The notes beneath the pieces are model-generated. The model saw only the letters and a program-made list of their open reading frames with translations, did not search any database and was not told the origin of the DNA. Positions 9,079 through 9,758 of a stretch of DNA of 11,694 nt are shown one piece after another. A program made the position numbers and the translations under genes. Source of the stretch: a virus (Duplodnaviria; Heunggongvirae; Uroviricota; Caudoviricetes); the IMG/VR virus record IMGVR_UViG_2671180437_000003, positions 1-11,694 of that record; one strand, written 5' to 3'. Each line of letters starts with the position of its first letter. The first letter of the stretch is position 1.

Positions 9079-9453
9079 ATGAAAAAGGATCTGAAAACGC
9101 TGGCGCTGGCCAGACTGTCAGGGTTTCGTCATAAAACGGTGAAGGTGCCGGAATGGGGTAATGTCAGCGTGGTGCTGCGGGAGCCTTCGGCAGAGGCCTG
9201 GTATCTGTGGCAGGAAGTGCTCAATGGTGATGGAGAGGATGACGATACCCTGTCGGTGGTGGCGAAAACCCGCCGTAACCTGGAAGCGGATGTGACGCTG
9301 TTCTGCGATGTCCTGTGTGATACTGACCTGCAACGGGTGTTCACTCCGGACGACCGTGAGCAGGTGCTGGCCGTCTATGGTCCGGTACATGCCCGGTTGC
9401 TGCGTCAGGCACTGGAACTGATCGCTGATGCAGAGTCGGCCAGAAAAAAGTAG
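9079..9453 (+). CDS. Tail assembly chaperone (lambda gpG-like)
   Basis: 124 aa ORF trimmed to ATG 9079 (the track start at 9031 overlaps the tail gene). Lies between the major tail and tape measure genes and ends at the slippery site A_AAA_AAG followed by TAG. Confidence 0.7.
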   Translation: MKKDLKTLALARLSGFRHKTVKVPEWGNVSVVLREPSAEAWYLWQEVLNGDGEDDDTLSVVAKTRRNLEADVTLFCDVLCDTDLQRVFTPDDREQVLAVYGPVHARLLRQALELIADAESARKK

Positions 9454-9758
9454 CCCGCCCGGAAATTCGCTTTCTGATGCGACTTGCGCTCCGTCTGGGG
9501 CGCACCTTATCCGAACTGCGGCACAGCCTGAGTGCGAGCGAGGCGATGATGTGGATGGAGTTCGACAGGGTATCCCCGCTGGGTGATGAGCGCGGGGATA
9601 TCCGTAATGCACAGATCGTGAAAGCGGTTTTCGGGGCACAGGGGATGAATGTTGCACTGAAGGACGCCATGCTCTGCTGGGGCGAGGATGAGGATAAGCC
9701 GGAGGTGGATCCGTTTGCGGCGCTGGAAGACGCGCTGAGCCTTGCAGCAATGTCATAA
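9079..9758 (+). CDS. Tail assembly chaperone G-T fusion made by -1 programmed ribosomal frameshift at A_AAA_AAG (9444-9450)
   Basis: The -1 frame is open from the slip site (GTA at 9450) to TAA at 9756-9758; predicted junction ...DAESARKK/VARPEIRFLMRLALRLGRTLSELRHSLSASEAMMWMEFDRVSPLGDERGD..., whose downstream part resembles gpT-like tail assembly proteins. Predicted product about 226 aa. Confidence 0.65.
9444..9450 (+). promoter_or_regulatory. Slippery heptamer A_AAA_AAG for -1 ribosomal frameshifting
   Basis: The heptamer sits in X_XXY_YYZ register relative to the G reading frame (codons AGA AAA AAG TAG at 9442-9453); the same heptamer is the E. coli dnaX frameshift site. Confidence 0.65.

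Follow-up and report, generated by a model that had tools for sequence, protein, structure and literature searches.

A probable programmed −1 frameshift site joining the tail assembly chaperone genes G and T in an HK97-like prophage of Escherichia coli O157

Tail genes and reading frames at the locus

The subject of this analysis is a pair of tail genes in a stretch of 11,694 nucleotides (nt) of viral DNA (Caudoviricetes; IMG/VR virus record IMGVR_UViG_2671180437_000003, positions 1 to 11,694), which is referred to below as the window. The window is a lambdoid, HK97-like prophage of E. coli O157 type. A gene for a G-like tail assembly chaperone (G) is followed there by an overlapping segment in the −1 frame (T), and a programmed −1 ribosomal frameshift very probably joins the two into a fusion protein (GT). 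The pair lies between the gene for the tail tube protein (8348-9064) and that for the tape-measure protein (from 9810), with G at 9079-9453 and T extending to 9758; this is the G/GT arrangement of long-tailed phages that an initial annotation, made from the DNA letters, had proposed. Frameshifting of this kind in the G/GT tail chaperones of long-tailed phages was reportedly described by Levin in 1993 and by Xu, Hendrix and Duda in 2004.

The features of the region are listed in Table 1. The chaperone identity claimed for the G open reading frame (ORF) was confirmed by Pfam family PF06222 (Phage_TAC_1), which matched all of its residues (1-124 of 124; E 1e-61, 206.7 bits against a cut-off of 25), and by phrog_344, a tail assembly chaperone profile. 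The −1 frame, described initially as gpT-like, was found to carry the lambda-T domain PF06223 (Phage_tail_T; E 6e-19, 68.7 bits against a cut-off of 25.9) and was also matched by phrog_337 (tail protein). The pair is of HK97 type, both domains score above the Pfam gathering scores, and NCBIfam profiles gave no match for G or T. In addition, the 224-position profile phrog_14766 aligned with G at its positions 2-122 and with T at 125-222; because one profile covers both parts, fused products already exist in phage annotations for this family. The gene upstream of G is labelled major tail subunit in homologous records and has AGGAGG upstream of its ATG at 8348.

The most likely start of G is ATG 9079, which is preceded by the Shine-Dalgarno sequence AAGGGGA (−9.1 kcal/mol) and gives a protein of 124 amino acids (aa). 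The longest mechanical ORF begins at 9031 and overlaps the major tail gene. Records differ on this start: the equivalent of 9031 is used in LC567835, with a 34-nt overlap with the tail tube gene, and the equivalent of 9079 by the NCBI Prokaryotic Genome Annotation Pipeline (PGAP).

Table 1. Features of the G-T region of the window and of its flanking genes
Feature	Position	Strand	Basis
Major tail (tube) protein gene, C-terminal Ig-like domain	8348..9064	+	Pfam Phage_TTP_11, Phage_tail_2, Ig_3
G-like tail assembly chaperone, 0 frame, 124 aa	9079..9453	+	PF06222 Phage_TAC_1; phrog_344
Stretch identical to the "Phage_TAC" reporter cassette, 75/75 nt	9424..9498	+	Exact match, Antonov 2013 Table S2
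Slippery heptamer A_AAA_AAG	9444..9450	+	Sequence, frame, relatives
T segment, −1 frame, 102 codons + TAA	9450..9758	+	PF06223; phrog_337; phrog_14766
0-frame stop TAG terminating gpG	9451..9453	+	Direct reading
Two local hairpins, unsupported as stimulators	9456..9504	+	Folding, relatives
ATG taken by GenBank/PGAP as "T" gene start; most likely an internal Met of GT	9477..9479	+	Weak Shine-Dalgarno, periodicity, Leu variants
Tape-measure protein gene, 5′ part (continues beyond the window)	9810..11694	+	PF20155 TMP_3, PF06120 Phage_HK97_TLTM

The slippery heptamer

Positions 9439-9453 read GCC AGA AAA AAG TAG in the G frame, and the G ORF thus ends in AGA AAA AAG TAG. The heptamer A_AAA_AAG lies on the plus strand at 9444-9450 with codons starting at 9445 and 9448, which is the X_XXY_YYZ register, as originally stated, and the 0-frame stop TAG (9451-9453) abuts its 3′ end. 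After a −1 slip the first codon would be GTA (Val, 9450-9452), composed of G9450 and the following TA. The frame then continues as VARPEIRFLMRLALRLGR... for 102 codons to TAA 9756-9758; a longer stretch of this reading, from GTA 9450, is VARPEIRFLMRLALRLGRTLSEL.... The predicted GT fusion, join(9079..9450, 9450..9758), is 226 aa long with the junction ...SARKK/VARPEIR..., and its junction peptide is SARKKVARPEIR. The initial annotation had the −1 frame open from exactly the heptamer to 9758. The end is correct, but the frame is already open from 9429, the last stop upstream being TGA 9426-9428, five codons ahead of the heptamer.

AAAAAAG occurs five times in the window (1.25 expected). Four copies are on the plus strand, and only the one at 9444 is in the −1 frameshift register; those at 569-575, 614-620 and 3805-3811 are all in AAA_AAA_G phase. 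The fifth copy is on the minus strand at 5199-5205.

Published data on the same sequence

The same gene is present in prophage Sp9 of the Sakai strain as ECs1801/ECs1802. ECs_1801 is identical to the window G at 122 of 124 aa, and the last approximately 600 nt of G-T, including the site and the whole of T, are 100% identical at the nucleotide level. The difference consists of two amino-acid changes near the N-terminus of G, and the window represents another prophage copy.

Sharma et al. (2014) described a prophage cluster of 53 genes, A_AAA_AAG_25, annotated as "ECs1801, tail assembly chaperone; [true]", in which the motif ends at residue 124 and the 0-frame and frameshift products have 124 and 226 aa, respectively (PMC4066793). 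They linked this cluster to GeneTack cluster #10 (PMC4066793). In addition, Antonov et al. (2013) cloned two members of a "Phage_TAC" cluster between GST and MBP (PMC3711429), and −1 frameshifting in E. coli was 7% ± 0.79 for the first insert and 6% for the second (Table S2, PMC3711429). Window positions 9424-9498 are identical to the first insert at 75 of 75 nt. The dual-reporter assay suggested in the initial annotation has therefore already been published on an identical sequence, with a result of 7% (Antonov 2013, PMC3711429), and a low fixed rate is assigned to the site by this identity. The site, its heptamer, the lack of convincing stimulators and an efficiency of about 7% are all already known from the literature. 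Biologically, nothing new is added here, and the residual value of the analysis is a correction of annotation.

Conservation among relatives

Fourteen G proteins from a protein search were aligned, and the alignment was used to fetch DNA loci. The comparative set consisted of 53 loci from different enterobacterial species, with 44-64% protein identity, and 80 viral contigs. T-like ORFs bearing the motif LALR[LM]G[RK] lay across the 3′ end of G in the −1 frame at 51 of these 53 loci, and all 51 of these intact relatives had A_AAG in register inside the overlap. The arrangement AAAAAAG-TAG with T in the −1 frame was present in every untruncated viral contig (78/78). Thus, a slippery sequence located in the overlap and in register was found in all intact relatives and all untruncated viral contigs, in accordance with the initial claim that the arrangement is conserved. 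A tblastn search of phages with the fusion yielded 248 records, 198 of which covered at least 80% of the query; among the matches listed, every one that spanned both G and T was broken into two pieces, which means two reading frames.

The heptamer itself varied. A_AAA_AAG was present in 31 of the 51 relatives, followed by the lambda-type G_GGA_AAG (5), A_GCA_AAG (5), the HK97-type G_GAA_AAG (4), G_GCA_AAG (4), A_GAA_AAG (1) and G_GTA_AAG (1). The A-site codon was AAG in all 51, against 110 of 341 Lys codons (32%) elsewhere in the same G genes, and a stop codon abutted this AAG in 35 of 51. These comparisons show that selection holds A_AAG in its register rather than the heptamer as a whole. 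As a side result of modest value, the analysis provides a survey of heptamer forms across a single chaperone family.

The two exceptions among the 53 loci were damaged copies. In one (L042, Serratia sp. L9), an indel in the A run placed T in the +1 frame; in the other (L044, a Symbiopectobacterium endosymbiont), G was pseudogenised and an A9 run fused G and T in frame. In both loci the variant lies within positions 1840-1900. A metagenome protein (P0001) was an in-frame G-T fusion without VARP, consistent with an 11-nt deletion. These three variants indicate that the A run also mutates at the DNA level.

Such runs raise the question of whether the fusion could be produced by RNA polymerase adding one A in the A6 run, with no ribosomal slippage. 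Insertion of a single A into the mRNA would give an identical ...RKKVARP... protein, several relatives (L009, L013-L018) have A8 runs, the A9 run of the degenerate L044 is fixed in its DNA, and poly-A runs are known to slip at several levels (Antonov et al. 2013, PMC3711429). However, the run in the window has only 6 A, whereas the examples of transcriptional realignment in Antonov et al. (2013) have more than 7 A (PMC3711429). Moreover, 20 of the 51 relatives keep the same arrangement with only 3-4 A, A_AAG is in the ribosomal register in all, and a G_GGA_AAG cassette from the family gave a similar value of 6% (Antonov et al. 2013, PMC3711429). The persistence of the arrangement in relatives with only A3-A4 disfavours transcriptional slippage, which we consider extremely improbable as the source of the fusion.

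Initiation of T at ATG 9477

In GenBank and PGAP annotations, T is a separate gene of 93 aa starting at ATG 9477, which would make the heptamer incidental. All four records inspected carry such a separate T coding sequence (CDS). However, of all annotated gene starts in the window, ATG 9477 is the one with the poorest Shine-Dalgarno match: the anti-Shine-Dalgarno duplex in the 20 nt before it has −3.5 kcal/mol, compared with −5.8 to −12.8 kcal/mol at the other annotated starts. The second ORF overlaps the first in the −1 frame with no ribosome binding site of its own. The 24 nt between the G stop and this ATG also evolve as coding sequence. In a sample of 33 distinct sequences of the same geometry, entropy was 0.71, 0.81 and 1.45 at T-frame codon positions 1, 2 and 3, a coding-type periodicity comparable with the reference values for true coding sequence (0.83/0.77/1.68 in G and 0.79/0.35/1.32 in T). 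Pro and Phe-Leu residues are conserved ahead of Met 9477, and the phrog_337 alignment begins at residue 4 of the −1 product, upstream of this Met. In addition, CTG-Leu replaces the Met with no nearby ATG in four relatives (L024, L031, L048 and L055). The same cassette frameshifts at 7%, and the HK97 record annotates the fusion.

Coding conservation upstream of the Met, the weak Shine-Dalgarno match and the Leu variants imply that translation enters the T frame from G. An independent start at ATG 9477, the alternative that the initial annotation itself had named, is accordingly disfavoured and appears very improbable. Most likely, T is made solely as the C-terminal portion of GT (226 aa).

Stimulatory elements

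No Shine-Dalgarno-like stimulator was detected 6-17 nt before the heptamer of the window, where the value was −3.0 kcal/mol, and the family generally lacks such an element as well. Values of −7 kcal/mol or stronger upstream of the heptamer were found in 5 of the 51 relatives, compared with 21% of background windows.

Downstream, two local hairpins were predicted, a weak one at 9456-9481 (5-nt spacer) and one of 8 bp at 9485-9504 (34-nt spacer). Fold z-scores of the four segments folded ranged from −0.3 to −2.85; for the two segments beginning at the 0-frame stop they were −0.9 (9451-9585, 135 nt) and −1.7 (9451-9520, 70 nt). The 9451-9585 fold reproduced the 130-nt hairpin of Sharma et al., with its 5-nt spacer and 7 bp. 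RNAalifold gave no consensus pair downstream of the site in 48 aligned relatives. In the same relatives, 53% (proximal hairpin) and 72% of cells were paired, with covariation not above controls. The hairpin at 9485-9504 was rejected as a conserved stimulator. Its distance of 34 nt from the heptamer exceeds that of classical stimulators, and many relatives do not preserve it, among them those with Lys (AAA) in place of the Arg codon of LALR[LM]GR. Thus, the search for a stimulatory structure after 9453 that the initial annotation had suggested revealed no conserved structure in the 48 relatives, and neither an upstream Shine-Dalgarno sequence nor a conserved hairpin or pseudoknot 5-9 nt downstream, the stimulation known from dnaX and IS911, was found at this site. 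Sharma et al. (2014) likewise reported no Shine-Dalgarno stimulator, and the ddG of their 130-nt hairpin was 0.020, below the threshold of 0.09 (Table S8, PMC4066793). For the bare heptamer A_AAA_AAG, a value of 0.29% was measured in another reporter (Table S3, PMC4066793).

Stimulation might instead come from the adjacent 0-frame stop (a "shifty stop") or from another element that is not a classical mRNA structure, such as the nascent C-terminus of G. In the former case, the P-site tRNA-Lys would slip while the A site awaits the release factor. The basis for this idea is an efficiency of about 7% with no conserved stimulator, the exchange of at least seven heptamers in the family and the stop abutting A_AAG in 35 of 51 relatives. 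However, a cassette with G_GGA_AAG_CCG_TAA, in which the stop is one codon further, gave a similar value (PMC3711429). We offer a stimulator of this kind tentatively and regard it as rather doubtful.

Comparison with known systems

The closest annotated system is that of phage HK97, whose gp13 and its −1 extension (NC_002167, joined CDS 7472..8145) contain the same PF06222 and PF06223 pair in the same place between the major tail and tape-measure genes. RefSeq describes the joined CDS as "translated due to a -1 frameshift"; over 223 aa, its product and the window fusion share 61% identity. The two differ at the slip site: HK97 has CGG GAA AAG (G_GAA_AAG) and its G runs six codons further, whereas in the window the stop comes straight after A_AAA_AAG. 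A further difference is the gp15 moron, which in HK97 separates T from the tape-measure gene and is absent from the window. In the HK97 locus (L141, 1835-1860), CGG GAA AAG would allow perfect re-pairing for the A-site tRNA only.

The logic and gene order are also those of G/GT in phage lambda, and the T domain belongs to the same family, PF06223. In contrast, lambda gpG matches only PF06894 (Phage_TAC_2) and the window G matches only PF06222. Judged by these profiles, the window G is G-like by role and position and falls outside the lambda gpG sequence family. The designation "G-like" in the initial annotation is therefore appropriate for chaperone role and position, but not in the sense of sequence homology to lambda gpG, the family being that of HK97 (Phage_TAC_1). 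BLASTP of the window fusion against lambda G or T found no match, and the link to lambda T is consequently through the Pfam profile only. The lambda heptamer is G_GGA_AAG, and six further codons of G follow it in lambda. The initial annotation was right that the window has the A_AAA_AAG of the dnaX/IS911 type rather than the lambda heptamer. The potency of the two in E. coli is nearly equal (0.29/4.3/39% for A_AAA_AAG and 0.28/3.8/43% for G_GGA_AAG; Sharma et al. 2014, PMC4066793). In lambda, GT and G are made at a ratio of about 1:30, with G as the binding partner of the tape-measure protein and T as the part that recruits the tube protein (Atkins et al. 2016, PMC5009743); both G and GT are needed for tail assembly and are absent from virions (PMC5009743).

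E. coli dnaX and insertion sequences of the IS911/IS3 family have the identical heptamer and presumably the same tandem slippage of tRNA-Lys. In dnaX and IS911, the heptamer is accompanied by a Shine-Dalgarno-like stimulator on its 5′ side, by a hairpin on its 3′ side or by both, whereas in the window such elements are neither present nor conserved. In addition, the dnaX shift shortens the product and the shift in the window lengthens it.

Proposed mechanism and its weaknesses

The sequence anatomy of the site, its homology, its conservation and its identity to a tested cassette point to programmed −1 ribosomal frameshifting between the two chaperone genes of this HK97-like lambdoid prophage of E. 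coli O157. We hold this reading, which is that of the initial annotation, with high confidence. Most ribosomes would translate G (9079-9453) and stop at TAG to give the 124-aa gpG. By analogy with dnaX and IS911, a minority would slip back one base with AAA in the P site and AAG in the A site (9445-9450), and both tRNA-Lys would re-pair on AAA AAA (9444-9449). The slipped ribosomes, about 7% if the site behaves as in the reporter with the same sequence, would read GTA GCC CGC... to TAA 9758 and produce the 226-aa GT. For the native phage, we infer the operation of the frameshift and the domain roles: as in lambda, the shared G part would bind the tape-measure protein and the T part would recruit the major tail protein, and a fixed low slip rate would set the G:GT ratio for tail assembly.

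Several points weigh against this reading. The value of 7% was obtained in a GST-MBP reporter containing about 138 nt of context, not with the GT protein of this phage. No conserved stimulator was found, upstream or downstream, and the bare heptamer gave only 0.29%, compared with about 7% for this sequence. Met 9477 is kept in 47 of 51 relatives, and some independent synthesis of T may occur. Finally, the portal gene of the window has lost 1 nt compared with Sakai Sp9 and is thereby split, and the site may be unused here.

The last point suggests that the site might be an intact relic, that is, that the prophage is defective and the frameshift, although genuine in the family, serves no purpose here. 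PGAP flags a portal homologue as "frameshifted", and the same gene has a 324-nt deletion relative to Sp9. Yet the G-T region is 100% identical to other O157 prophage copies and 98% identical to inducible Stx-converting phages, and a defect elsewhere in the prophage leaves the nature of the site unchanged. On this evidence, a functionless relic is unlikely, but by no means negligible.

Distribution and annotation

Region 9031-9810 is 100% identical to phage PPyecE_EH1910 and strain FDAARGOS_293 and approximately 98% identical to many Stx1a, Stx2a and Stx2c converting phages; the closest copies of the window prophage are LC567835 and NZ_CP022050. Of 5426 complete E. coli genomes, 1246 carry the G-T module, which was also present at an identity of at least 95% in 92 phage records, many of which are Stx-converting.

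The initial annotation had predicted that automated annotation would miss the fusion. Indeed, the four records inspected (LC567835, NC_011356, NZ_CP022050 and Sakai NC_002695) have separate G and T CDSs and no GT, and T starts at the equivalent of ATG 9477 or later. In Sakai, ECs_1802 ("T") is annotated from an ATG later still, giving 69 aa. No joined CDS is annotated in the relatives mEp234, vB_EcoS-689R5 and phiBt-TXDOH; HK97 alone has one. The main significance of our analysis is thus for annotation: the 226-aa GT is absent and T is free-standing in the records inspected, despite this being a common prophage module.

Other features of the window

The gap between the T stop and the tape-measure start is 51 nt. 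It contains a hairpin at 9768-9797, AAAACCTGC-TGTG-GCAGGTTTT, followed by more T. This hairpin is terminator-like on the plus strand, and the scan also flagged the minus-strand reading. A "putative terminator" is annotated at the equivalent position in HK97, 3′ of the gp15 moron. The hairpin may be an attenuator or a remnant of the moron slot.

The portal gene is divided into two ORFs (4562-5926 and 5923-6822) around 5900-5930, where the window has G5 and Sakai Sp9 has G6. In Sakai Sp9 the portal is a single 859-aa ORF (ECs_1795), and the homologue flagged by PGAP as "frameshifted" is that of FDAARGOS_293. The G5 run could reflect a mutation that pseudogenised the gene in a defective prophage, or it could be prone to slippage. 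In addition, 6137-6356 (approximately 220 nt) aligns twice, about 322 nt apart, in Sakai Sp9, PPyecE_EH1910 and FDAARGOS_293, which implies that an in-frame stretch of approximately 324 nt, or 108 codons, is missing in the window from the internally repeated part of the ORF downstream of the portal; this ORF has 299 aa in the window and 407 aa in LC567835. Further upstream, a single 645-aa ORF (2413-4350) combines Peptidase_S78 (residues 48-151) and Phage_capsid (residues 386-635) domains and is named variously "prohead protease" or "major capsid protein" in annotations.

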